Below are positions 1,526 to 55,001 of a stretch of 64,000 nt of DNA, piece after piece; the stretch's first letter is position 1, and each line of letters starts with the position of its first letter. Origin of the DNA: Mobula hypostoma (Eukaryota); assembly GCF_963921235.1 (NCBI RefSeq), contig NC_086107.1, positions 112,656,001 to 112,720,000 of the forward strand. Direction: 5' to 3'. A model generated the notes under the pieces. That model was not told the DNA's origin. It saw only the letters and a list, made by a program, of their open reading frames with translations, and ran no database searches. The position numbers and the translations under genes were made by a program.

Positions 1526-1615
1526 TGCTCCTACAGATCATGATTCACTATAGCAAAGTTGCCAAGTAAACACAATTATTCATTGTCCAACTTAATGTAA
1601 GAGGGCTCCACGTAC

Positions 1616-1760
1616 CTCTCCCCCAAAGATGGGCAGTGCACCAATGGCCTTCTGAAGGGCTTCGATCTCTTGCACAGGCCCAACAATGAGCGATGTTCCT
1701 GTGTCCACTATCGCCTGGCAGCCTCCCTTGCACAGGGTCAGCTGGCTGCCTACGGATACC
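1616..1760 (-). CDS. napsa: Aspartic protease exon 7 ([48 protein letters not shown]), second catalytic Asp
   Basis: 145 bp, AG/GT boundaries, AIVDTGTS motif; gene continues beyond the left edge (exons 8-9 not found). Confidence 0.93.
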
Positions 1761-1984
1761 CTGCATGGAAACAGCAAAAATAAAAGTACAGGAATGAGAG
1801 ATTTTCGTTCAACATGGCCAAAGAAATTTGCTTAAAATTTTCTCCAAGGCAACAAATTTTCCACTATCCAGCCATTTGGCAGTTTGGTCACAGGGAAGAC
1901 ATGCAAATTCCATGCAGCCAGCATCTGAAGTCAGGTTTGAACCCAAGTTGCCAGGGCAATGAGGCAGCAGCTGTATTACTTTAA

Positions 1985-2670
1985 GTCATAGGAGCAAGTT
2001 AGGCCATTTGGCCCATTGAGTCTGCTCTGGCATCCCATCATAGCTGATTCATTTTCCCACAGAACCCCATTCTCCCGCCTTCTCCCTACAAATCTTTGAT
2101 ACCTTTATCAAGAAACCTAACTTCCCTTTTTAAACGTACCCAATGGCTTGGCCTCCACAGCCATCTATGGCAATGAATTCCACAGCTTCACCACCCTGTC
2201 CCTAAAGATATTCTTCATCTCTTCTAAAGGGACATCATTCTTTTCTGAAGCTGTGCCCTCTGGACTTAGACTCCCCCACCATAGGAAATACCCTCTCAAC
2301 ATCCACGATCTAGACTTTTCAATACTCAATAGGTTTCAATGATAATTCCCCCCCCCCCCCAATTCCAATAAACTCTAGCAAGTTCAGGCCCAGGACCAGC
2401 AAAACCTTCTCATACATTAACCCTTTAATTCCCAGGATCATACTCAAGAACATCCTCTGAACCCTCTCAAATGCCAGCATATCCTTTCTCAGTCACAGGG
2501 CCTGAAACTGCTCAGAATACTCCAAGTCCAATCCAGCCTTATGAAGCCTTGGCATTACATCCTTGCTCTTTTATTCTAGTCCTCTCAAAATGAATGCCAA
2601 CATTGCATTTGCCTTCCTCACCACCGACTCGACCTGCAAACTTACCTTTAGGGAACCCCACAAGGTTCCC
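1985..2670 (-). mobile_element. CR1 3' fragment
   Basis: Similar to 10700-11360 including the 3' UTR hairpin region. Confidence 0.75.
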
Positions 2671-3673
2671 TCGAGGCTTACTTAAAATTTACCGCACATG
2701 ATTGCGTAACTCCTTTAAAAGTGTTGGCCGTATCAATTGGAACAATATCCAACAGTCTGGAGAGGGTCTGCCAATTCAGCTCCACAAAATTTCCTGGCGT
2801 TGGATTAATGGAGGTGTACTGTGTATGAACTCTGAACTCCAAGACGACTTTGGCTTCTGAAGTGCCCCCAACCCTCAAGGAATGCCAAGGTCAAGATCAA
2901 GGTCCCTGCTCTGGCGAGCATTACAAGTCCAGTAGAAGTTCTGAGCATGTTTCCTACAAAGGTTGTGGAAGCTCCCATGACTGAATAACTGGCTTCTGCT
3001 ATGAACGAACAAGATTTTAGGGGAGGCAGTGAGAGATAGTTCTGCCTTGGACAGTCCCAAGCTTGGCTGAGAAAGGAAGAGGGTTGGACATCAAGGCTAG
3101 CAACCCCATCCTTTAAAAACCCAAAGCTACAGAAACACCAAAAGCTGCAAGGACCTCACTCCTGGGACAGGAAAGATCTTAAGCTGAGCTACAGGGCCAA
3201 GCAAACCTTCTATTCGGCCGAAGGCAGAGGTCTCTGGTGAGCTGCCGTTGGTGCCCTATGCCCCAGTAGTGATGGGCCCCAAGCATTGAGAAGCACCTAC
3301 TACACCTGCACATTTGTGAAACAAGACACTTTGCAGATGCTGGAATTCCGCACACAGACAATGCTGGAGGAGCTCAGCAGGTCAGGCAGCATCCATGGAG
3401 GGAAACAGTCGATGTTTTGGGACAAGACTCTTCATCAGGACTGGAAAGGAAGGGGGACAGAAGCCAGAATAAAGGTGGTGCGGGGGCAAGGAGGGGGAGG
3501 AGCACAAGCTGGCAAGTGAGGGAGCAAGTGGGTAGGTGGGGGTGGTGATGGGCAAAGGCAACTTGCCGCCAAGTTCCTCCAGCATTCTGTGTGCGTTGCT
3601 CTGGATTTGTATCCAGGAGGCAAGAGCTCATGAAAAGAAGACCACACAAGAGCCAAAGCTGGCCTGAACTTAC

Positions 3674-3796
3674 TTGTCAGCCTTTATCTGCCAGTAGGCC
3701 TGGCGTGTGATATTCAAATAGTGGAAGCTTCCAGTATAGTACTTGGGGTCAGTCCCTCCCAGCAACAATTCACCTCCAGGCTGAGTAGTTGTGTTC
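3674..3796 (-). CDS. napsa: Aspartic protease exon 6 ([41 protein letters not shown])
   Basis: 123 bp, AG/GTAAGT boundaries, [10 protein letters not shown] and YWQI motifs; not in the ORF track. Confidence 0.93.
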
Positions 3797-3923
3797 CTGA
3801 AACCGAGAAACGGAAGGCAGCAGGAACGTTAGAAAATGGTAAAAGATTAACACAACAAGAAGATTCCGAGATTAGGGAAGGAGGAAAATGAACGGAGCAG
3901 GATACGCCACAGACAAAACCCAC

Positions 3924-4123
3924 CTGTTCAGGTAAAAGGAGAAGACATCTTTTTCCAACAGCTTTTGTTTTATCATGTTATCAAAGACAGGCAGGACACC
4001 ATCAACAGAAATTTTTGGGTAGGCCATGCCAAGGATCCCATCGAACTTTGCAGCGATGAACATCAATCCTGGCTGCTTAACTGCCTCAGCAAAGATCTGC
4101 GTCGGAATTTTCAAGTCACCAAT
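3924..4123 (-). CDS. napsa: Aspartic protease exon 5 ([19 protein letters not shown]...[10 protein letters not shown]...FSFYLNR)
   Basis: 200 bp, AG/GT boundaries, FDGILGM motif; overlaps ORF 3872..4114. Confidence 0.93.
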
Positions 4124-5046
4124 CTGGAAAATCAGAGTGAACCAACCATTATTACCCGATAACCATTAGGCTTTTGAACAAGCATGGATATCTTCACTCA
4201 CCACACTGAACACAACCCATGGACTCATTTCCAAGGACTCTCCAGCTCACGTTCTTGGATTGTTTACTTATTATTCGTTCTGTATTTGCACAGGTGGTCT
4301 TCTGTGGCACACTGTATGCTTGACAGTCTGTATCACAAACACAAGAAAATCTGCAGACCAACACACCAAAATGCTGGAGGAACTCAGGTCAGGTGGAAAT
4401 GATTAAACAGTCGACATGTCAGGCAGAGACCCTTCATCCTGATGAAAGGCCCAAAACACCGACTGTTTATTCAATTCCACAAATGCTGCCTGACCTGCTG
4501 AGTTCCTCCAGCATTTTGTATGCATTGCCATAGCCTCTGCGTGCAGTTTTTCCATCAATTCTGTTCCATTTGTTCTACTGTGAATGTCCACAAGAAAATG
4601 AATCTCAGGGTAACATGGTGACATAATATACAAGCTTTGATAACAGAGCTACTTTGAAGATCAGGGCTTCTCACTGGCCACCTAGGACAATTCGGCTCGT
4701 AACAGTAACTTCCTTTGTTCCACTCTTCTCCTCCGACACAACCTTTAAAAGTTTGTTTCAGCTTACAAAACCTTTTCACCCTCCCCAACTGTGCAGCTTT
4801 CTTTCCAAGGGAGTGCCCGTCCATTTCTGGACCTCCAACTTATTCAGTTCATCTGTGGTCATGTCATTATCCGCCATGACCCAGGTCTGGAAATCCTTCA
4901 GACCTTCCCCTCTTAAACCTCCCTCTTTGACCAAAAGTGGTTTCTTTTTTTGTTTACATAACATTTGGGTCAAATTTTGTTCAGCAGTCACTTGACTCCT
5001 TAGAAGAATTAGCTCCAAGGAAGGCACTGCACATTTGCAGCCCATT

Positions 5047-5592
5047 TCATAGAAACATAGAAAATAGGTGCAGGAGCAGGCCATTCGGCCCTTCGAGCCT
5101 GCACCGCCATTCAGTATGATCATCCAACTCAGAACCCTGTACCAGCCTTCCCCCCCCCCCATACCCCCGATCCCTTTAGCCACAAGGGCCATATCTAACT
5201 CCCTCTTAAATATAGCCAATGAACTGGCCTCAACTGTTTCCTGTGGCAGAGAATTCCACAGATTCACCACTCTCTGTGTGAAGAAGTTTTTCCTCATCTC
5301 GGTCCTAAAAGGCTTCCCCTTTATCCTCAAACTGTGACCCCTCGTTCTGGACTTCCCCAACATCGGGAACAATCTTCCTGCATCTAGCCTGTCCAATCCC
5401 TTTAGGATTTTATATGTTTCAATAAGATCCCCCCTCAAACTTCTAAATTCCAACGAGTATAAGCCTAGTCGATCCAGTCTTTCATCATATGAAAGTCCTG
5501 CCATCCCAGGAATCAATCTGGTGAACCCTCTTTGTACTCCCTCTATGATAAGGATGTCTTTCTTCAGATTAGGGGATCAAAACTGCACACAA
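5047..5592 (-). mobile_element. CR1 3' fragment (same family as 60568-63000)
   Basis: LGLYSLEFR..RGDLIETYK ORF end and CATAGAAA tail. Confidence 0.9.
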
Positions 5593-7131
5593 TAATACAT
5601 ACATCCACACCTATTCCAAGTTAGGAGAAAGTCACCTGTGCTTTGTCTAGAAAGCAGAAAACCAAAGAGAACCACCTTCCGGGACACTCAAGTATCCTAT
5701 ACAGTGAAAGGGCCCACTAACTCCCTCTCTCCCACGGCATAGTGGGCATCAGCAATGTCGCCCTTCCCCTCCGGGCTCGTGCCCTTCCAGTTTACTCTCC
5801 TGCAGCTACAGTGGAATGCATGAAGAGGGAGGGAAAACGTAGTGCATTCTCCCACCACTTTCTCAGCAGGCTGAAGAAATTCAGCATGCCTCTGTCAACC
5901 AAACAATTTTTAAATCAATGCACCACAGAAAGCATCCTATCTGGATGTATAACATTTCGCGTGCAAGAAACTAGAGAGTTGTGGACACAGCTCAGCACAT
6001 CAGAGCAACCAGCCTCCCGTCCGTGGACTCTGATTCTGCTGGCTACTTTACTGAGGCAGTGAAGTATCGATGAGAGCCCTACCCAGCCCAAACATCCTCT
6101 CGTCTCGCCTTGGGTGTTAAATACAAAAGCCTGAAAGCACACATCACCAGGCTTGAGGACAGCTTCGACCCACTGTTATTAGACTATGAACCACTTGTCT
6201 GATAAGATGGACTCCTGGCCTCACAATCTACCCAATATGATCTTATTTGTTTATGTGCACTGCACCTTTTCGGTAACCTTTACACTTTATTCTGCATTCT
6301 GTTATTGTTTTGCCTTATACTAGCTCAATGCATCATATAATGATTTGATCTGTATGAACAGTATGCAAGCTTTAATTTATTATTGAGATACAGTGCAGAA
6401 CAGACCCTCTAACCTACAGCACCCAGCAACTGCCAATTTAACCCACAGGACAATTTACAACAACCAATTAGCCTACTACCCAGTACGTCTTTGGACTGTG
6501 GGAGGAAACCAGAGTACCAAGAGAGAAACCCACACATTCAACAGGGAGAACGTACAGACTCCTTACAGAGGACATTGGAATTGAACTTTGACCCCAGCTG
6601 TAATGAGGGGTTAGAGTTCAAAGTTCAATTCCAATTCACTTCTTGAGATCGCCTTGAGGCTCTTAGGCTACCCAAATGTTTTCCCAATTGTTCAGATGGT
6701 CTGCATGTGGATCTTGGTGGCATGCTAGTCCACGATACACTTCTCACTCTACCTTGCCACGTGTGACAATAACTTAATACCAAGTGAATGCCAAAAGAAC
6801 ATTCAAGTCAGGGTACAGAGATCTTCTCATTGCCACTGGTTCATCTGCTAGTGTTTAGTCAGGGACTTCACCTCCTTTACTGGACCTACCTTGTGCTTAC
6901 AGCAAGTATAACATGCCCATTTCAACAAATTGACTACAATAGCTTCAAACACTCCTGGGATTAGAAGCAGCATCCATCAACAATCCTCCATTTCCCACCC
7001 CCCCACCCCACCACCACCACCCAGGGTATACCATCTTTGCTACAACCACTGGGAAGGTAGAGGAGCTTTAGCCCCGCACCACCAGGTTCAGGCCCAGTCA
7101 CTATCCGACCATTGGAACAGTTATTATTCTA

Positions 7132-7750
7132 CAAGGGGTGATTGATAAGTTTGTGGCCTAAGATAGGAGGAGTCAATTTTAGAAAACCTAGACCACTTAT
7201 TTTTCAACATAGTCCCCTCCTACATGTACACACTTAGTCCAGCGGTCATGGAGCATACGGATCCCTTCTTTGTAGAAGTGGTCCACAGCAGGGGTGATTG
7301 GTAAGTTTGTGGCCCAAGATAGAAGGAGATGAGTTACTAAACATCAAACTTTCTGCATTATCACTCAAAGAGTTGAACTGCACATGCATGTAACGAGAGC
7401 CTCTTGGACCTCCAGGTGGTCCACAGCAGGGGTGATTAAAAAGTTCGTGGCCTAGGGTAGAAGGAGATGAGTTACACAGCTCTCGTTACATGCACGTGCA
7501 GTTCAACTCTGAGTGAAAATGCAGAAGGTTTGATGTCAATAACTCACCTCCTTCTACCTTAGTCTACGAACTTATCACCCCTGGTGTGGACCACATTTTG
7601 GAGGTCCAAGACACTGACTTCTACCAAGAAGGGATCCATATGCTCCATGACTGCTGGACTAAGTGTGCAAATGTAGGAAAAATAAATGTGCTAGGTTTTC
7701 TAAAATTGACTTCTTCTACCTTAGGCCATGAACTTATCAATCACCCCTCA
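7132..7750. mobile_element. Mariner-derived MITE (two transposon right ends in inverted orientation)
   Basis: TA+CAAGGGGTGATTGATAAG...CTTATCAATCACCCCTCA termini; ~140-bp imperfect inverted arms; FYQEGIHMLHDCWTKC resembles a mariner transposase C-terminus. Confidence 0.8.
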
Positions 7751-8778
7751 TTCTTTTAGTCCCCTGAAGCAGTGTGGATAAAGCCAATGGCAAAGTAGAC
7801 TCGATGGTCTGAATGGCCTAATTCTGCTCCTACATCATGTTCTTATGGACTCTAGGCAGCATTCATGCAGATACAGGCATCTGAGGTCTCACTGCCCTGA
7901 GCTGCATTTTAAATCTAATCTGTGAACCACATTCAGATCTGAACATTGGTTGCTGATGAAATTAACATTTGCTAACTTCCAGTTAAGATGGCGCCACTAA
8001 GCTCATGCAACAGCTCTCTGGTAGTTCAAAAGGCAATAAATTCAACTAAAAACATCTTTTCTGAAGTAAATTGTGTTGTGTTAAATTATCAGAGAGTTCA
8101 GGGGACGAGCCATGCGGGTGTGTTGCAGAATTGAAGCCGATGAAACAAACCTTTCAAAGAGAAGTCAGAGCAGAGGAGCTCCAATGCCTTTACAACTGGC
8201 TTGGGTGCGAGGTCGGTCAGATTACTCAGGGCGCCAAGCTGATCTGAAGAGTTTGAGAGTGGCTTTGGGCCGGGTGATGTGGTCTGGGCCCCAAGCCCTT
8301 TACAACAGTGGCCCCAGGTCCTAATACGAGGTACAATCTGCTGTTTGGCCAATTTAAACACCAGCCCATATAGACTGGAAAGACAGGGCGTCAGGATCAG
8401 AGGTGAGAGCCGATTTCTGCCTCACTGCTCTGCGACGTTTACTCCGTTCTTCCCTGCATTGAGACTGAGGGCTGCTCCAGGCCTCATGACTACGGACTTG
8501 CTTTTGTTCCGAATGCTGTGTGCTTGCATGATTTGTATTCCTCTCTGTACATTTGCTGTTTTATTTATTTAAATTGGTTCTTTTGTGTTTGTTTTGTGGC
8601 TGCCTGTAAGGAGATGAATCTCAAGGTTGTATAATGTATACATACTTTGATAATAAATGTACTTTGAACCAAAAACAGCTGATATAAGAAATGAAACCAC
8701 ACTATAGTATTCTATGAAATATTATCCACAGCTTTGTTACAAAACTCTTAAATGCTAACCAAGGAATGACATAAATCA

Positions 8779-8937
<159 letters not shown>

Positions 8938-10299
8938 TCACTTAAAAAGAGCCAACTTAATCTTTATTCTTCTACTGACACTACCAAGTAATTTCAACAA
9001 CTGTGACTTGTAGCCTCTGGTGTTCAAACCTTAACAGTACCTTCTTCAAAGAATCTTCTTGCCCCCAACCGCGCCCCCCTCCCCTAGGGACCAAAACTGA
9101 CATGAGTAACTTCCACACCATCCTAAACCACCAGGTTCAGGAACAGTTGTTCTTCTAACTACCAAACTCCTGGACCGATGAGGACAGTTTCACTCACCTC
9201 GTCACCAAATTGATTCCACAACCTGTAAACTCACTTTCGGGGACTTTGCAGCACATGATCTCAGTATTATTTATTTTATTTTTAATCACTTGCACAATTT
9301 GTGTTCTTTTGCATGTTTTAAGTCCTCATGGATTCTATAATTTTTTTTAAAATTTGGGCATCTTGTAGGTGCCTGCAAGATAATGAATCCCAGGGTTGGA
9401 TATTATATGGGCAGCTGTCCGTCATAACTGACAATGATAGGAAATGTGTGTTGGAGAGGTTGTGTTTTAAAAAAGGTGAAAAAGATGTTGCAGCAGGGCA
9501 ATTCCACTCTCAACAAGTCCAGGTCCAGTGGAACAAGTAGCTGTCACAACTGGGGTCTTCTGTGGGTGCAGTGGATGACCAGTGTTGCCTCTAACACACA
9601 CATCTTTTGCTACTAGCCCACAAGGGAATTTAGACTGCACACGAAAGGTTGTCACCCTCTACCTTGTTGGCAAGTATTTCACGACTGTACACAATCACAT
9701 TTCCTTTTCGGCTTGTGATGTCGTTTTATTTCTCTTAATGAACAAACTTGACTTGGTAATTTATTGTCTTTAGAATAGCTTCAGGTTTATTTCTAATTAA
9801 AATTTCGGATCGCCCATGTTGTCGCCAGTGGGCAAAAAGTTGCACAGCACAAGACCTTTGCTCACACTGGTGATTACAAATCAGCTGGAACATTGTGGAT
9901 GACCACAACTTCTGCGCCTTGTCACACCCTTTGTTCTCTGAGAAGTGTTGCAAAACGGCCTTCCTGACTGTTGGATCTCACCCACCCGGTCCACCGGAGC
10001 TAACTTTGCATGTCAGGACAGCCATGTGCCAGTTGTGTTCTACAAACTTTGATAATAAATTTACTGGAATGCTCCCAGGACAGGGAAGATCCTGGGAGAT
10101 TTTGGGATGGTGTGGAAGGTAGACAAAGGTCCTTCTGCACTGCCCTGGAATCGACTCCCAGGGCAGGACAGCGTACTCTACCTTCCCCAGTGAGGCAGCA
10201 ATGATTCTAGTAGCTTCATGATGACTACGGAACAGACAATACCAACCTAGAACTATACCCAACCCAAAGATTTAAAACACCACAAGCACATTTGCTTCA

Positions 10300-10476
<177 letters not shown>

Positions 10477-10699
10477 TCAGAACAAGTTCTGAGGGAAAAA
10501 CAGCAAGAAGCAACCATTCCCCTGTCCCTTTATCCTACCAGCCCCTCCATCTGCCCATCACACACACACACTCCCACCCTTTATTCCATGGTCTGCTGCC
10601 CAATTAGATTTCACCTTCTTCAGACCCTTGTCACTTCCACCTATCACCTCCAAGCTTCTTACCTTTCCACTCTCCTTCCTTCCCATCAGTCCCCTCTCC

Positions 10700-12830
10700 A
10701 TAAGACTTAGGAGCAGAATCAGGCCATCTGGCCCATTGCGTCTGCTCTGCCATTCTGATCCTTTTTTCCCCCCTTCTCAACCCCAGTTCCCAGCCTTCTT
10801 TCCATAACCTTTGATGCCATATCCAATCAAGAAGCTATCAGTCTCTGCCTTAAATACAGCTGGCCTCCACAGCTGCATGTGGCAACAAATTCCACAAATT
10901 CACCACTCTCTGGCTGAAGAAATTTCTCCACATCTGTTATGAAAAGGTGCCCTTCTATCCTGAGGCTGTGCCCTCTTGTCCTAGACTCTCCCACCATGGG
11001 AAACATCCTTTTCACATCTACTGTCTAGGCCTTTCAACATTCAAGAGGTTTCAATGAGATTCCCCCCCCCCCCATCCTAAATTTCAGTGAGTACAGACCC
11101 AGAGTCATCCTTGTATGATAATCCTTTCATTCCTGGAATCATCCTTGTGAACCTCCTCTGGACCCTCTCCAATGCCAGCCCATCTTTTCTAAGATGAAGG
11201 GCACAAAACTGTTCACAATACTCAACTGAGGCCTTACCAGTGCCTTATGAAGCCTCAGCATCACATCCTTGCTCTTGTATTCTCGACCTCTTGAAATAAA
11301 TGCTAACATGGCATTTGCCTTCCTCACCAACTCAACCTGCAAGCTGACCTTTCTGTTCCGCACAAGGACTCCAAGTCCTTTTGCATCTCAGATTTTTGGA
11401 TTTTCTCCCAGTTTAGAAAATAGCTCACATTTTTACTACTAAAGTACATGACCATGCATTTTCCAACATTGTATTTCATTTGCCACTTTCTTGCCCATTC
11501 TCCTAATCTGTCCAATTCCTTCTGTACTCTACCTATTTCCTCAACACTGCCTGCCCCTCCACCAATCTTCATATCATCTGCAAACCTGGCAACAAAACCA
11601 TCTACTCCATCATCTAAAATCATTTAAATACAGCATAAAAAGTGGCCCCAACACCAACCCCTGCGGAACACTAGTCACTGGCAGCCAACCAGAAAAGGAT
11701 TCTTTGATTCCCACTCGCTGCCTCCCACCAATCGGCCAATGCTCTCTGTTAGTAACTGTCCTGTAATACCACAAGTAAGCAGCCTCAGAACACTACAGCA
11801 CAGAAAACAGGCCATTCGGCCCTTCTAGTCTGTGCCGAAACATTCCGCTAGTCCCATTGACCTGCATCCAGTCCATGATGTGTGGCACCTTGTCAAAGGC
11901 CTTCTAAAAGACCAAATATACAACATCCACCACATCGCCTTCACCTATCCTACTTGTAATCTCCTCAAAGAATTCCAACAGGATTCGTCAGGCAGGATTT
12001 TCCCTGCAGGAAACCATGCTGACTTGGTACCATCTTGTCCTGTGTCACCAAATACTCCATCACCTCATCATTAACAATTGACTAACATCTTCCAGCCACT
12101 GAGGTCAGACTAACTCATCTACAATTTCCTTTCTGCTGCCTTCCTCCTTTCTTAAAGGAGTGAAGTGATATTTGCAGTTTTCCAGTCCTCTGGCGCTATG
12201 CCAGAATCCAATGATTTTTTTTTTTGAAACGTCATTTCTAATGCCACCTCTTTCAGAACCCTAGGGTGCAGTTCATCTGGTCCGGGTGACTTGTGCACCT
12301 TTAAGTCTTTCAGCTTTTTGAGCACCTTCTCCCTTGTAATAGTAACTGCACCCACCTCTCTTCCTTCACACACTACAACATCAGGCTTACTGCTAGTGTC
12401 TTCCAGTGAAGACTGATGCAAAATACTTATTTAGTTCATCAGCCATCTCCTTGTCCCCTATTATTTCTCCTGCCTCAATTTATAGTGGTCCTATGTCCAC
12501 TCTCATTTCTCTTTTATTTTTTTTTTAAAACATACTTGGAAAAAAAAACTTACTATCCACTCTGATAGTATTTGCTAGTTTGTTTTCATCCTTTGCCTAA
12601 TGATTTATTTTTTTTATTTATTTTTTTTTAAGTTGCTCTCTGTAGATTTTTAAAACCTTCCCAATCCTCTATCTTCCCACTAATTTTTGCTTTGTTGCAT
12701 ACCATTTCTTTTGCTTTTACAAGAGCTTTGACTTCCCTCGTCAGTCACGGTTGTATTATACCATTTTACCATTTGAGTATTTCTTCATTTTTTAACACAT
12801 ATCCTACACCTTCCTCATTTTTCCCCAGAA
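10700..12830 (-). mobile_element. Older degenerate CR1 ORF2 fragment
   Basis: KSPGPDELHPRVLKE, FADD, LHKALVRP remnants in broken ORFs. Confidence 0.85.
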
Positions 12831-12944
12831 ACACCTGTTAGGTCTTGCTCCAGTGCTCCCCTAACCCCTTTAATACTGGCCCATCTCCTCTTCCCTTCCA
12901 GTCCTGATGAAGGCTCTGAAGATCAGCTGTTCACTTCTCTCCAT

Positions 12945-13240
12945 GGGGAAGGCACAGTAGCATAGCTGTTAGCACAGCACTTTACAGTATCAGTAACCCA
13001 GGTTCAATTCCCGCCACTGCTGTAAGGAGTTTATACACTCTCCCCGTGACCATGAGGATTTCCTCTGGGTGCTCCAGTTTCCTCCCACAGTCCAAAGACA
13101 TACTGGTTCGTAGGATAATTGGCCACTGTAAACTGTCCCATGAGTAGGCTAGGGATTTAAGTTAAAAAAAAACAGCATTGCTGGGCAGCATAGCTCGAAG
13201 GGCTGAGAGGGACAACTCCATGCAGTATTTCAATACTAAA
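12945..13240 (+). mobile_element. V-SINE-like (HE1-like) tRNA SINE
   Basis: A/B boxes and GGGTGCTCCAGTTTCCTCCCACAGTCCAAAGAC V-domain; other copies ~21030-21220, 24290-24510, 59395-59590 (+) and ~6370-6600, 21900-22070, 22200-22400 (-). Confidence 0.75.
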
Positions 13241-13693
13241 AAAATTCCCTGACCTGTTGACCGCCTCCATCTTTTTATGTTGCTCCGGATAAGAGAGCAA
13301 GGAGGGCGACATAAATCAGAAACAGCATAAAGTTAGGGAAGGAGTGTGTAGAAATGATAATCCAGAGACAGACCAAGACCACAAGATACAGGAGCAGAAC
13401 TAGGCCATTTGGCCCATCAAGTCTGCTCTACCATTACACCATGGTTGGTCAGGGCATGAAATGATATGGGGAGAGGAAAACTGAATCAAGATTCTATCAC
13501 CCTCCGCCTTAAATATACATAAAGGCTTTGCCTCCACATCTGCCCGTGGCAAGGAGCTCCACAGATTCACCACCCTGCTTATACGTGGGAGGGGGAGGCT
13601 TTGGGGTTCTAACATTTAACTGTCATTCATTCTCTGGGGCATTCCTATTTTTTGTGGATGTTTGCAAAGAAAAAGAATTTTAGGATGTATATT

Positions 13694-13926
13694 TAAAAGC
13701 AAACAACAGGAATTCTGCAGATGCTGGAAATTCAAGCAACATACATCAAAGTTGCTGGTGAACGCAGCAGGCCAAGCAGCATCTATAGGAAGAGGTGCAG
13801 TCGACGTTTCAGGCCGAGACCCTTCGTCAGGACTAACGAAGGGTCTCGGCCTGAAACGTCGACTGCACCTCTTCCTATAGATGCTGCTTGGCCTGCTGCG
13901 TTCACCAGCAACTTTGAAGTATGTTG
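13694..13926. mobile_element. Penelope-derived fold-back (palindromic) element
   Basis: ~91-bp arms 13737-13827/13836-13926 with one mismatch and an 8-nt loop; 14-bp TSD TTAGGATGTATATT. Confidence 0.88.
13799..13834 (-). ncRNA. Minimal type I hammerhead ribozyme motif
   Basis: AGUC-CUGACGA-AGGGUCUCGGCCU-GAAA-CG-UC-GACU: complete core, helix I AGUC/GACU, palindromic ACGU helix III. Confidence 0.72.
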
Positions 13927-14392
13927 TTAGGATGTATATTGTATACATTTGACATTAAATGTACCCATTGAAACCTTTGGATAAAGAAATTCCTCCATCT
14001 CCATTCTAAAGGGACACCCCTCTATTCTGAGTCTGTGTCCTCTGGTCTTAGCCTCTCCCACCATAGGAAACATCCTCTCCACAGCCACCCTATCTAGGCC
14101 TTTCAACATTTGATAGGTTTCTATGAGATCATCCCTTATTCTTCTGAATTCTAATGAATACAGGCCCAGAGCAATCAGACACTCTTCATATGACAAGTCA
14201 TTCAATCCTGGAATCATTTTTGTGAACCCCTTCTGAACACTCCAATTTCAGCACATCCTTTGGAAGATAAGGGGCCCCAAAGATGCTCACAATACTCCAT
14301 TTGAGGCCTCACCAATGCTTTATAAAGTCTCAACATTACATTCTGCACAGACTGCAGTGGACAATCCTTGCTTAGCAAGCACCTGTACTCAC

Positions 14393-14543
14393 ATCCAGGT
14401 AGTTTGTGAGGATTTCCGGAGTATCTCCCGAGGATTCAGTGTACTTCCCATTCCCAAGCTTTCCGGCAGCAACAAGATTCTCAACAGAGACTGCAACATC
14501 CGTCAGTGAGTGACGCATGGATTGGAATTTCGTCAGCGGAATT
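14393..14543 (-). CDS. napsa: Aspartic protease exon 2 (propeptide IPLTKFQSMRHSL...PEILTNYLD)
   Basis: AG acceptor, GTGAGT donor, 151 bp; A1-family propeptide RIPL.KF.S.R and L.NYLD motifs. Confidence 0.9.
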
Positions 14544-14839
14544 CTGTCAAACAGAGAAAGATGTTAAGTACTTTTCCCCTTAAGCACTGTCTTCACCCCC
14601 CTTCACGCACTCCCCAATTCTAGTCTTCAACCACCCCTCCATGTGTTCCCCAATCCTTTCCCTATAGTCTCTTGCCAAAAAAAACAACACAACTTTATTG
14701 TCATTTACTTATATACTGTCAAACAAGACAATGTTTCTCCAGACCAGGGTGCAAAGCACAGTAGTACACACAACTTAGGAAAGTAAAAATTAAATCTACA
14801 GATGAATTATGCACAAATTATTCTCAATCATTGAGAGCT

Positions 14840-33974: not shown

Positions 33975-34705
33975 GAGGAACTCAGCAGGCGCCTCCAACA
34001 TTTTGTATGTGCTGCTCAGATTTCCAGCATCTGCAGATTTTCTCTTGTTTGCTACTGGTCATTTTCCTCCATGGATGATGCCTGGACCAGAGTTTCTCCA
34101 GCTTTCAGAGTCTTATTTTAATATAAAACTGTACTGAAAAATTCTCTACTGTCTCTTTATTCCCCACTCTGGCATCTTGCCTCTTCTCAACTGCTAGCAA
34201 CCTCTTCCTGATGCCCCTCCCTCCCTCCCTCCCCCCAGAGTTGTACATTGCATACATACTTTTCTGCCAGTCCACTCTACTCTCCTATCAGATTCTTTCT
34301 TCTCCAGCCCTTTATCTTTCCCACCCACTTATCACCTCCTAGCCAGTCCTCCCTTACCACCACCCCACCCTTTTATTCTGGTCTCTTCCCCCCTTCCTTC
34401 TCATTGAAGAGCCTCAGCCAAACCGTCAACAATTTATGCCCTGTCATAGATGCTGCCTGACCAGCTGAGTTCCTCCAACAGAGTGTCTGTCTGTGGAATA
34501 CCAGCAACTGCAGAATTTCTTGGGTCACAGTAATTTCTTGTGGACGTGCAGCTGTGAATGAACTATTAAGAAGGCCATAAATGAAAGAATTAAATGAAAA
34601 GGGACACGAGTTTAAAAAATAAACTAAAAGCTTAGAACCTGTTGCCCAAGAGGCACGGGAAACAACACCTGGATCAGCAATTGAACTGGACTACCTAATT
34701 CTCCT

Positions 34706-34862
34706 CAAAGAACAGGAATTCTGCAGATGCTGGAAATTCAAGCAACACACATCAAAGTCACTGGTGAGTCCTGACGAAGGGTCTAGGCCTGAAACGTCGA
34801 CTGTACCTCTTCCTAGAGATGCTGCCTGGCCTGCTGCGTTCACCAGCAACTTTTATGTGTGT
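34706..34862. mobile_element. Penelope-derived partially inverted short element
   Basis: Same family as 13694-13926; 14-bp TSD TACCTAATTCTCCT (34692-34705, 34863-34876). Confidence 0.85.
34767..34802 (+). ncRNA. Minimal type I hammerhead ribozyme motif
   Basis: AGUC-CUGACGA-AGGGUCUAGGCCU-GAAA-CG-UC-GACU. Confidence 0.72.
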
Positions 34863-35271
34863 TACCTAATTCTCCTTCACGTTTGTATTTGCATAGTGTT
34901 TACTTACATAACGTACTGGAAATGATTAAACAATCTTGAACAGGCTTAAACAGAAAGCAAGCTCCATTTCAAAGACCACAGTAGGCCAAGAGGTCTTTTG
35001 CTCCTTACACTTCAGTGAGTTTAGCAATGTTAGAATTTTACATGTCGAACCCTGTCATGGAGCTCAAAGGTGTTAACCCCTCCCAGCACTGACCAACCGT
35101 GCCAAGAATTAAACATTTTACTGGAAGCCCATAAACCCCGTGACTCCTCCACCCTCAAGCCCCAACACAAAGCACCACCTTACAAAAAAAGAGTGCCTCA
35201 AAGTCACTTGCAACACCTTAAGGTGCCGAAATTAATAACAAAAGGCCGGAATAAACGGTCTGGATGCTCAC

Positions 35272-54025: not shown

Positions 54026-54639
54026 ATTGCACGCTCTGTCCGCCAGAGAAAGCAGGATCTCCCAGTGGCCACACATTTTAATTCCACATCCCATTCCCAT
54101 TCTGACATGTCTATCCACGGCCTCCTCTATTGTAAAGATGAAGCCACACTCAGCTTGGAAGAACAACACCTTATATTCCCTCTGGGTAGCCTCCAACCTG
54201 ATGGCATGAACATCGACTTCTCTAACTTCCGCTAATGCCCCACCTCCCCCTCGTACCCCATCTGTTACTCATTTTTATACACACATTCTGTCTCTTTCTC
54301 TCCTTTTTCTCCCTCTGTCCCTCTGTATATACCCCTTGCCCATCCTTCCTTTTCCCTGGGCCCCCTGTCCCATGATCCTCTCATATCCCTTTTGCCAATC
54401 ACCTGTCCAGCTCTTGGCTCCATCCCTCCCCCTCCTGTCTTCTCCTATCATTTTGGATCTCCCCCTCCCCCTCCCCCTCCCCCTCCCACTTTCAAATCTC
54501 TTACTAGCTCTTCCTTCAGTTAGTCCTGACGAAGGGTCACGGCCCGAAACGTCGACTGTACCTCTTCCTACAGATGCTGCCTGGTGAACAACTTTGATGT
54601 GTGTTTCTTGAATTTCCAGCGTCTGCAGAATTCCTCGTG
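54026..54639 (+). mobile_element. Penelope-like element, 5'-truncated (endonuclease C-terminus, pyrimidine-rich UTR, hammerhead-containing terminal repeat)
   Basis: PVATHFNS..HSHSD..LEEQHLIF.LGSLQPDGMN.DF frame; TSD TGCACAGCTAA (54015-54025, 54640-54650). Confidence 0.85.
54522..54557 (+). ncRNA. Minimal type I hammerhead ribozyme motif
   Basis: AGUC-CUGACGA-AGGGUCACGGCCC-GAAA-CG-UC-GACU. Confidence 0.72.
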
Positions 54640-55001
54640 TGCACAGCTAACTTTGTTTGTAATGATGGCCAGTGTAGTTTATCAGTTATGTAGACGTTTA
54701 TAATCACGCAGGACGATAAGTGAGAGTCCTCTACATAGTTAGAATGAAAATAGAAGATATGATATCTACTGGAATTACCATGTCTGATTCTCTTGGTCTG
54801 GCTAATCACTCAATTATGATTATGTGGACACGCAGTCCCCTTTTATTGTCATTTAGTAATGTATGCATTAAGAAATGATAAAAATGTTTTTCCAGAATGA
54901 TATCACGAAAATACATGACAAATCGACTTAAAAACTAACAAAAACCACATAATTATAATGGATAGTTACAACAGTGCAAAGCAATACCGTAATTTGATAA
55001 T

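Follow-up and report, generated by a model that had tools for sequence, protein, structure and literature searches.

The question raised by this locus is whether a short non-coding insert that folds back on itself, with a minimal hammerhead ribozyme at its apex, belongs to a mobile family of its own or is a by-product of another element. The original prediction left two readings side by side, a non-autonomous retrozyme- or MITE-like family and recurrent inversion products of Penelope-like elements (PLEs). The reading that we favour, with a probability of roughly 0.8, is that the insert is a dead PLE by-product, a "twin" mini-insertion made anew by reverse transcription primed from both strands of its target.

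The insert, its target-site duplication and its fold

A repeat search of the locus identified a 14-bp target-site duplication (TSD), TTAGGATGTATATT, in two exact copies (100% identical) at 13680-13693 and 13927-13940 of the window, by which we mean the whole 64-kb stretch of DNA that was analysed. This pair delimits an insert of 233 bp, 13694-13926, and the features of the locus are as follows.

13680..13693, no strand: left TSD copy, TTAGGATGTATATT, identical to 13927-13940
13694..13736, minus strand: tail of 43 nt, the 3' end of the element's sense strand, present on one arm only and without a hairpin partner
13737..13837, minus strand: arm 1, a short but complete copy in minus-strand sense orientation, bounded by a point 3 nt upstream of the hammerhead and by the inner reverse-transcription start site (parent context ...CCCTTCGTCAGGACTAACTGAAG)
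13838..13926, plus strand: arm 2, an inverted copy of the arm 1 unit whose sense strand is the plus strand, without a tail and ending at the inner reverse-transcription start site
13927..13940, no strand: right TSD copy, from the repeat search

The raw search placed the inverted arms at 13730-13830 and 13833-13933 (101 nt, 95% complementary); the actual hairpin is a 94-bp pairing of 13737-13830 with 13833-13926, mismatched only at 13745/13918 and 13828/13835. Folding of the minus-strand RNA of 13680-13940 gave a minimum free energy (MFE) of -199.3 kcal/mol, compared with a mean of -66.8 (sd 4.2) for shuffled sequences (z = -31.7), and none of 200 shuffles reached the native energy. Both the 233-bp insert with its 14-bp TSD, an exact duplication on either side of 13694-13926, and the near-perfect hairpin, originally put at ~91 bp, are borne out by these measurements. 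Besides the TSD, no direct repeats were found in 13400-14200.

Arm 1 is colinear with the parent PLE through 13837 (…GGACTAAC), after which the parent reads TGAAGGAAGAG, and loose ends with TGAAGGAAGAG... follow 13837 in contigs of the sequencing runs X1, X3 and X20; the contigs examined came from four runs and cover mostly the repeat. Since the left arm follows the parent as far as 13837, the true junction is 13837|13838 and not the centre of the palindrome, and the switch from arm 1 to arm 2 appears to have used a 2-nt AC/GT microhomology at that point. The parent sequence shows …GGACTAAC to be templated, for which reason a join at the centre of the palindrome through an untemplated A was rejected. 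Separately, contigs of runs X3 and X20 join 13693 to 13950/13952, skipping 256-258 nt, and could represent an empty site in related organisms, the sequence on the two sides of the join amounting to only 24-25 nt.

The hammerhead motif at the hairpin apex

The motif was read from the sequence and its pairings were checked by folding.

13799..13834, minus strand: minimal hammerhead motif at the hairpin apex, AGUC-CUGACGA-A-GGGUCUCGGCCU-GAAA-CG-UC|GACU, read from 13834 down to 13799

Helix I is AGUC/GACU (4 bp), the core is CUGACGA and helix III is a single A-U pair around a palindromic CG, with the predicted cleavage site between 13803 (C17) and 13802 (G1.1). The conserved core (C3-A9, G12-A14, A15.1-U16.1 and C17) is all present, as are helices I and II. 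The intact minus-strand hammerhead that had been proposed therefore stands as regards motif and core; its helix II, originally given as AGG/CCU, is better read as a bulged (unpaired) A followed by GGG/CCU with a G10.1-U11.1 wobble, and the Rfam model was not matched. The hammerhead covariance-model search suggested as a check came out negative: at the gathering score there were no Rfam matches in the whole 64-kb window, and the 11 matches obtained at E<=10 on 13600-14020 included no hammerhead family, reflecting a generic hairpin likeness to microRNA families, far below gathering scores.

The mirror copy on the plus strand had been described as broken (CUAACGA). Its letters are as described, and they do not represent a mutated core: CUAACGA is the end of arm 1 (…CTAAC) joined to arm 2, which, on a sequence reading, is without the first 7-9 nt of its own hammerhead. 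As arm 1 switches to arm 2 at AC/GT, CUAACGA is a chimera of the two arms.

The suggestion that the hairpin could mask the ribozyme agrees with the modelled energies. The hairpin had an MFE of -198.6 kcal/mol, compared with -145.0 kcal/mol when hammerhead helices I and II were forced, a predicted cost of ~54 kcal/mol. The isolated 36-mer of the hammerhead also favoured pairing of the core GACG with CGUC (-10.0 vs -4.6). On these models the hammerhead rides as a passenger: in the host pre-mRNA the 94-bp duplex encloses it, and folding or cleavage is unlikely. The four subfamily-level polymorphisms described below all lie outside the motif, for which the chance expectation is about 1 in 4; copies that are 96-98% identical differ too little for conservation of the core to be weighed against that of the flanks.

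The host gene

The insert lies in a minus-strand gene for an A1 aspartic protease, whose exons are distributed across 1595-14563 and which runs off the low end of the window.

14375..14563, minus strand: propeptide exon frame, PF07966 A1_Propeptide, E 1.4e-5, 25.3 bits (cut-off 20.5), …RIPLTKFQSMRH…EILTNYLD
10300..10476, minus strand: DTGSS exon frame with the first catalytic aspartate, PF00026 Asp, E 1.1e-16, profile positions 1-39, AQYYG… (12 protein letters not shown)
8779-8937, 3875-4165 and 3673-3828, minus strand: further Asp-domain exons, from the profile search
1595-1831, minus strand: Asp-domain exon with DTGTS, the second catalytic motif, from the profile search

The insert is located in the intron between the propeptide and DTGSS exons, with the hammerhead on the strand of the gene, which confirms the predicted placement of the ribozyme in an intron on the transcribed strand; it would be intron 2 given a signal-peptide exon further upstream. 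Two open frames on the minus strand, 1-378 and 11327-11623, matched ALKBH8_N (E 1.5e-12) and, weakly, RVT_1 (E 0.002); they are probably pieces of other retroelements within or close to the protease gene.

A long intronic duplex of this kind might meet ADAR or Dicer. That the host makes use of the hammerhead or the hairpin in the protease pre-mRNA, be it for regulated self-cleavage, as a supply of small RNAs or as an editing site, is a reading to which we give almost no credence. It would account for core nucleotides kept intact on the transcribed strand, for the position within an intron of a minus-strand gene and for a long near-perfect duplex. The insertion is young, however, with one arm-to-arm difference outside the join, and is one among tens of thousands of similar insertions; the hammerhead is predicted to be disfavoured within the hairpin by the energy given above (~54 kcal/mol), the microRNA matches are generic and well below gathering scores, and single minimal hammerheads gave no cleavage in vitro (PMC4209133).

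The parent family

In order to place the insert among its relatives, the 233 bp were compared by BLAST with the 3.48-Gb genome, which returned 1,608 first-look candidates, and the best 40 were scored. All 40 were full-length copies, 96-98% identical and scattered over many contigs. A search for the 33-nt tail/arm boundary, allowing one mismatch, found it at least 56,459 times in the genome (control 0); counts from the genome searches are lower bounds, and sampled copies were drawn from parts of contigs C1, C2 and C5. Long copies, whose ends align with the unit at 98-99%, continue upstream of the hammerhead. One of these (L102) contains an ORF of 547 aa with a reverse transcriptase domain (RVT_1, residues 86-200, E 1.7e-5) and a GIY-YIG endonuclease domain (residues 450-524, E 4.3e-4), whose Pfam scores are just below the curated cut-offs (25.1 vs 29.6 bits and 21.0 vs 22.6 bits, respectively); the frame stops ~300 bp before the hammerhead. 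Kilobase-long copies are head-to-head inverted dimers with copy-specific junctions. Given the continuity of the unit with copies that encode RT and GIY-YIG, the 233-bp insert is the hammerhead-to-start-site end of an endonuclease-bearing PLE.

An exact TSD of 12-16 bp of its own, at an unrelated target, flanks 38 of the 40 full-length copies (12 bp in 2, 13 in 12, 14 in 17, 15 in 5 and 16 in 2; the remaining 2 have only 7 bp), from which it follows that the boundary of the insert at the window locus is not due to chance. The targets were AT-rich by eye and the length of the TSD was variable, as in PLEs.

A random sample was made of 99 of the first 100 matches listed for the tail/arm boundary, one that lay inside another locus being left out. 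An adjacent inverted arm was present in 52 of these members, with many different junctions, 31 were simple truncated copies and 16 extended off the sampled DNA. The combination of inverted copy and one-ended tail that characterizes PLEs is thus found here, none of the copies being tailed at both ends. Together with the continuity to RT and GIY-YIG, these inverted arms with their varied junctions support the second of the two original readings, that of recurrent Penelope inversion products.

Further relatives were observed in the window. At 34693-34866 there is a second twin insertion of the same PLE family, with a 13-bp TSD (ACCTAATTCTCCT) and a different junction: the tail-bearing arm breaks off near unit position 68, and a full arm beginning AGTCCTGACGA follows it directly. 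A simple, non-inverted copy at 54524-54640 (plus strand) is 83% identical to the unit and keeps a C at 11.1 (GGCCCGAAAC); its upstream continuation is C-rich pseudo-LTR sequence. An older, diverged relative at 4300-4560 (minus strand) is inverted head to head and has the core CUGAUGA on one arm, keeping the AUG that starts the ORF in other PLEs.

The hairpin is rebuilt at each insertion

The original prediction asked for a comparison of copies that would tell whether the loop junction is shared, as in a replicating family. It is shared: the 28-nt apex junction has at least 661 genomic occurrences within one mismatch (control 0), which is ~1% of the family (at least 661 of at least 56,459). An A or G variant of the junction was found 399 times exactly, with a split of 48 to 52 among the first 100 matches listed, and a variant with an extra T 63 times exactly. 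Sharing through descent, on the other hand, is contradicted by the copies themselves.

For this we took the first 45 matches listed for the 28-nt junction and oriented them by the junction, which is asymmetric. The tail was on the left arm in 24 copies and on the right arm in 20, one copy being unresolved, and each of the 44 resolved copies had exactly one tail, never one on both arms or on neither. Copying of the whole unit cannot shift the tail from one arm to the other, and the split of 24 vs 20 therefore argues against descent from a master fold-back. An exact TSD of 8-17 bp was present in 42 of the 45 copies.

The second line of evidence comes from four sites that are polymorphic in the family, 13742 (C/T), 13775 (A/G), 13785 (A/C/G) and 13796 (C/T). 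Paired-arm states among the 40 best copies were TA in 25 vs CG in 11, AT in 31 vs GC in 8, AT in 35 vs GC in 5, and CG in 22 vs TA in 14, and the four sites formed at least 8 combinations in these copies, all of which also occur in the general pool. In the junction sample there were at least 8 haplotypes at the four sites in each tail-side class, and the two arms of a copy agreed in 147 of 157 comparisons at these sites; in the random fold-backs they agreed at 78 of 84. The number of differences between the arms ranged from 0 to 14 per copy in the junction sample, indicating insertions of many ages.

With junctions that vary, a tail that switches sides, arms that are concordant, and ages that differ while junctions recur, the hairpin is rebuilt de novo at each insertion from a one-armed template and is not copied as a unit. 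The reproducibility of the 661-copy junction counts against this account, a single lineage being its simplest explanation. Likewise, a few variants confined to one arm are common to several of the 40 best copies (A at 13826 in 5, A at 13918 in 5, and A vs G at 13835 in 30 vs 9), as would be expected if fold-backs were inherited, but 13835 and 13826 coincide with the join or adjoin it, and 13826 is in a CpG.

An independent non-autonomous fold-back family (MITE-, SINE- or retrozyme-like), with the 233-nt hairpin RNA as its own template, is on this evidence very improbable. It would readily explain the 40 full-length copies at 96-98% identity on many contigs, the 28-nt junction common to at least 661 copies and the shared single-arm variants, and its free 3' tail would still be accessible to a reverse transcriptase. 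It is largely refuted, however, by the side of the tail relative to the asymmetric junction (24 to 20) and by the parental haplotypes, at least 8 in each class, with arms changing together; in addition, the junction accounts for only ~1% of the family, other junctions being as common or independently recurrent, TSD length varies between 8 and 17 bp and the units are not arranged in tandem. The same observations leave the first of the two original readings, the retrozyme- or MITE-like family, unsupported.

Three specific candidates were rejected. A MITE or fold-back DNA transposon does not fit an element with an unpaired 43-nt tail at one end and a TSD of 8-17 bp that is not fixed; a non-LTR retrozyme does not fit a locus whose two copies are inverted, with no tandem direct repeats of the hammerhead unit in 13400-14200; and a self-replicating fold-back family does not fit the distribution of tail sides, the haplotypes per class and the joint changes of the arms.

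Arm ends at the edge of the ribozyme

We next consider where the arms stop. Among 135 inner ends of arms, 49 lie 25-37 nt upstream of G1.1, 22 of them at +30 to +32, where helix I begins. Simple copies (L087, L095, L149, L175 and L177 among them) also end at the 5' edge of the hammerhead, where they directly abut their own TSD. The hot spot points either to a genuine 5' end of the RNA or to a strong stop there. A spike of arm ends at the cleavage site was, by comparison, unconvincing: only 3 of the 135 ends (L069, L089 and L094, whose inverted arms begin GACUG) are exactly at G1.1, a faint hint that cleaved RNA sometimes serves as template and too few to count as evidence. As a separate observation, the fold-backs L151 and L171 are joined at the palindromic GTCGAC in the hammerhead, a recurrent junction with self-complementary microhomology.

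The parent sequence at the hot spot is TTAGTCC, which would agree with the initiator consensus YYANWYY. Tentatively, both cDNAs of an insertion may derive from one RNA molecule, the first from the inner start and the second from the outer start, displacing it, with PLE transcripts that start at the ribozyme's initiator-like TTAGTCC. One tail per twin insertion, arms of the same haplotype and the pile-up of ends at the hammerhead edge point in this direction, and we regard the combined proposal as possible, though with the odds against it. If transcripts start at TTAGTCC, reverse transcription from whichever start site is closest to the mRNA 5' end would give just such cDNAs, of 100-140 nt. From starts close to that end, dead mini-insertions would then arise in great numbers and become the seeds of long double-stranded RNA hairpins in introns, and the genome would be a natural record of PLE integration, tens of thousands of insertions deep.

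A proposed mechanism: twin insertion from two start sites

The biochemistry of PLEs offers the elements of a mechanism. One PLE protein, studied in purified form, cuts its DNA target, preferably AT-rich, on both strands and extends both; reverse transcription begins at two adjacent internal sites of the RNA, in an AC-rich region, and the genomic tail corresponds to the stretch between the two sites (PMC11167929). Mutation of the hammerhead leaves insertion unaffected, and the ribozyme cleaves only with the protein present (PMC11167929). PLE insertions often have an inverted 5'-truncated copy and a tail of 30-40 bp, at one end only (PMC8557442).

In the window, the PLE enzyme would have cut both strands of an AT-rich intron site ~14 bp apart, the cut being deduced from the 14-bp duplication that is observed. 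Each free 3' end would then have primed reverse transcription of one shared short RNA, reaching from the first bases of the hammerhead to the internal reverse-transcription start region of the PLE. One cDNA would have begun at the outer start site, and so carry the tail, and the other at the inner start site, without it; both would have run to or near the RNA 5' end at the 5' edge of the hammerhead and been joined head to head via the 2-nt microhomology, so that the hammerhead ends up at the apex of the hairpin.

The two start sites are visible in the copies. Tail-bearing arms start at unit positions 1-17, in AAACAACAGG, and tail-less arms for the most part at unit positions 37-53, in CAACAYACATC, which lies 35-43 nt inward. 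The outer end of the inverted arm was at reference positions 35-51 in 38 of the 52 fold-backs of the random sample and never in the tail, and all fold-backs examined (L041-L100 and L145-L183) have one arm from the outer start and the other from the inner one, with none of the 52 tailed at both ends. This rule of exactly one tail is not predicted by independent priming of the two strands and counts against our main explanation; no difference between the strands in start site was reported in vitro (PMC11167929).

A different route to the same product is that a cDNA primed on a single strand reached the edge of the hammerhead, snapped back and copied itself as the second arm, the hairpin again arising de novo. 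We consider it unlikely, if clearly less so than the fold-back family. The parent has a small natural inverted repeat at the join, CCTTCAG…CTGACGAAGG, the junction predicted from this repeat was found 63 times exactly, the join requires just 2 nt of self-complementarity and, as snap-back would entail, the arms of one copy are nearly always of one haplotype. Against it, nothing in copying back would make an arm halt at the inner start, where 38 of 52 end (35-51); a hairpin-capped end would need extra steps to reach the other end of the target; a tail-bearing arm that is much shorter than its partner, as in L058, L075 and L089, is awkward to explain; and extension of both strands has been demonstrated in vitro (PMC11167929). 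We thus infer two primed cDNAs rather than one snap-back, together with the details of the join, for the twin insertion at this locus.

Meaning

Taken singly, the locus is nothing unusual, a PLE fragment that is young and dead and sits in an intron, and its twin inverted arms are a described habit of PLEs, not a new kind of mobile element. The pattern of the family is of wider use as in vivo genomic support for the extension of both strands and the two internal start sites found in vitro. PLE membership, recurrent de novo formation of the hairpin, one tail per insertion, one haplotype per copy and the hot spot at the hammerhead edge are read directly from the copies. Three regularities may be of specialist interest: each insertion has a single tail, its two arms come from one template, and arm ends cluster at the ribozyme edge; neither the exactly-one-tail rule nor the ribozyme-edge hot spot is stated in PMC11167929 or in the available portions of PMC8557442 and PMC4209133. 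Among the papers listed in a literature search none was specific to PLE hairpins, twin priming or template switching, though one may be in print. The results also call for caution, in that a junction common to hundreds of copies need not mean a replicating family.

Comparison with known systems

In LINE-1 twin priming, which produces 5' inversions, the second target strand primes a second cDNA that gives an inverted 5' part. The two parts of such an insertion are different, adjacent segments of the element, whereas here both arms are the same segment, which results in a hairpin.

Animal non-LTR retrozymes (PMC7229834; bioRxiv 10.64898/2026.07.22.740005) are likewise short, non-coding, hammerhead-bearing and derived from PLE pseudo-LTRs. 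They are tandem direct repeats that yield circular RNAs, in contrast to the window insert, which is a single inverted pair with no direct repeat.

With the minimal hammerheads of PLE pseudo-LTRs (Cervera and de la Pena 2014, PMC4209133), the window motif shares the CUGANGA…GAAA…UC core, the 4-bp helix I, the unpaired base before helix II and the one-pair helix III with a palindromic CG, for which activity would be expected only as a dimer. Pairs of minimal hammerheads close together on opposite strands are also noted there. The window motif differs from that description in having G10.1-U11.1 in place of a conserved G-C, in having C as N7, with loss of the AUG inside the core, and in its predicted ground state, which pairs the core GACG with CGUC.

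The closest known systems are the PLE insertions of Craig et al. 2021 (PMC8557442) and Frangieh et al. 2024 (PMC11167929). Common to these and to our family are a parent with RT and C-terminal GIY-YIG, a hammerhead beside the reverse-transcription start, AT-rich targets with variable TSDs, a head-to-head inverted copy, a one-ended tail (35-43 nt here) and two AC-rich start sites. The window insert differs in being only 233 bp long, with both arms stopping at the 5' edge of the hammerhead, and its family in repeating the same join hundreds of times. Finally, the one-sided tail, present "often" in those PLEs as far as these sources describe them, is here present exactly once in 44 of 44 resolved copies.
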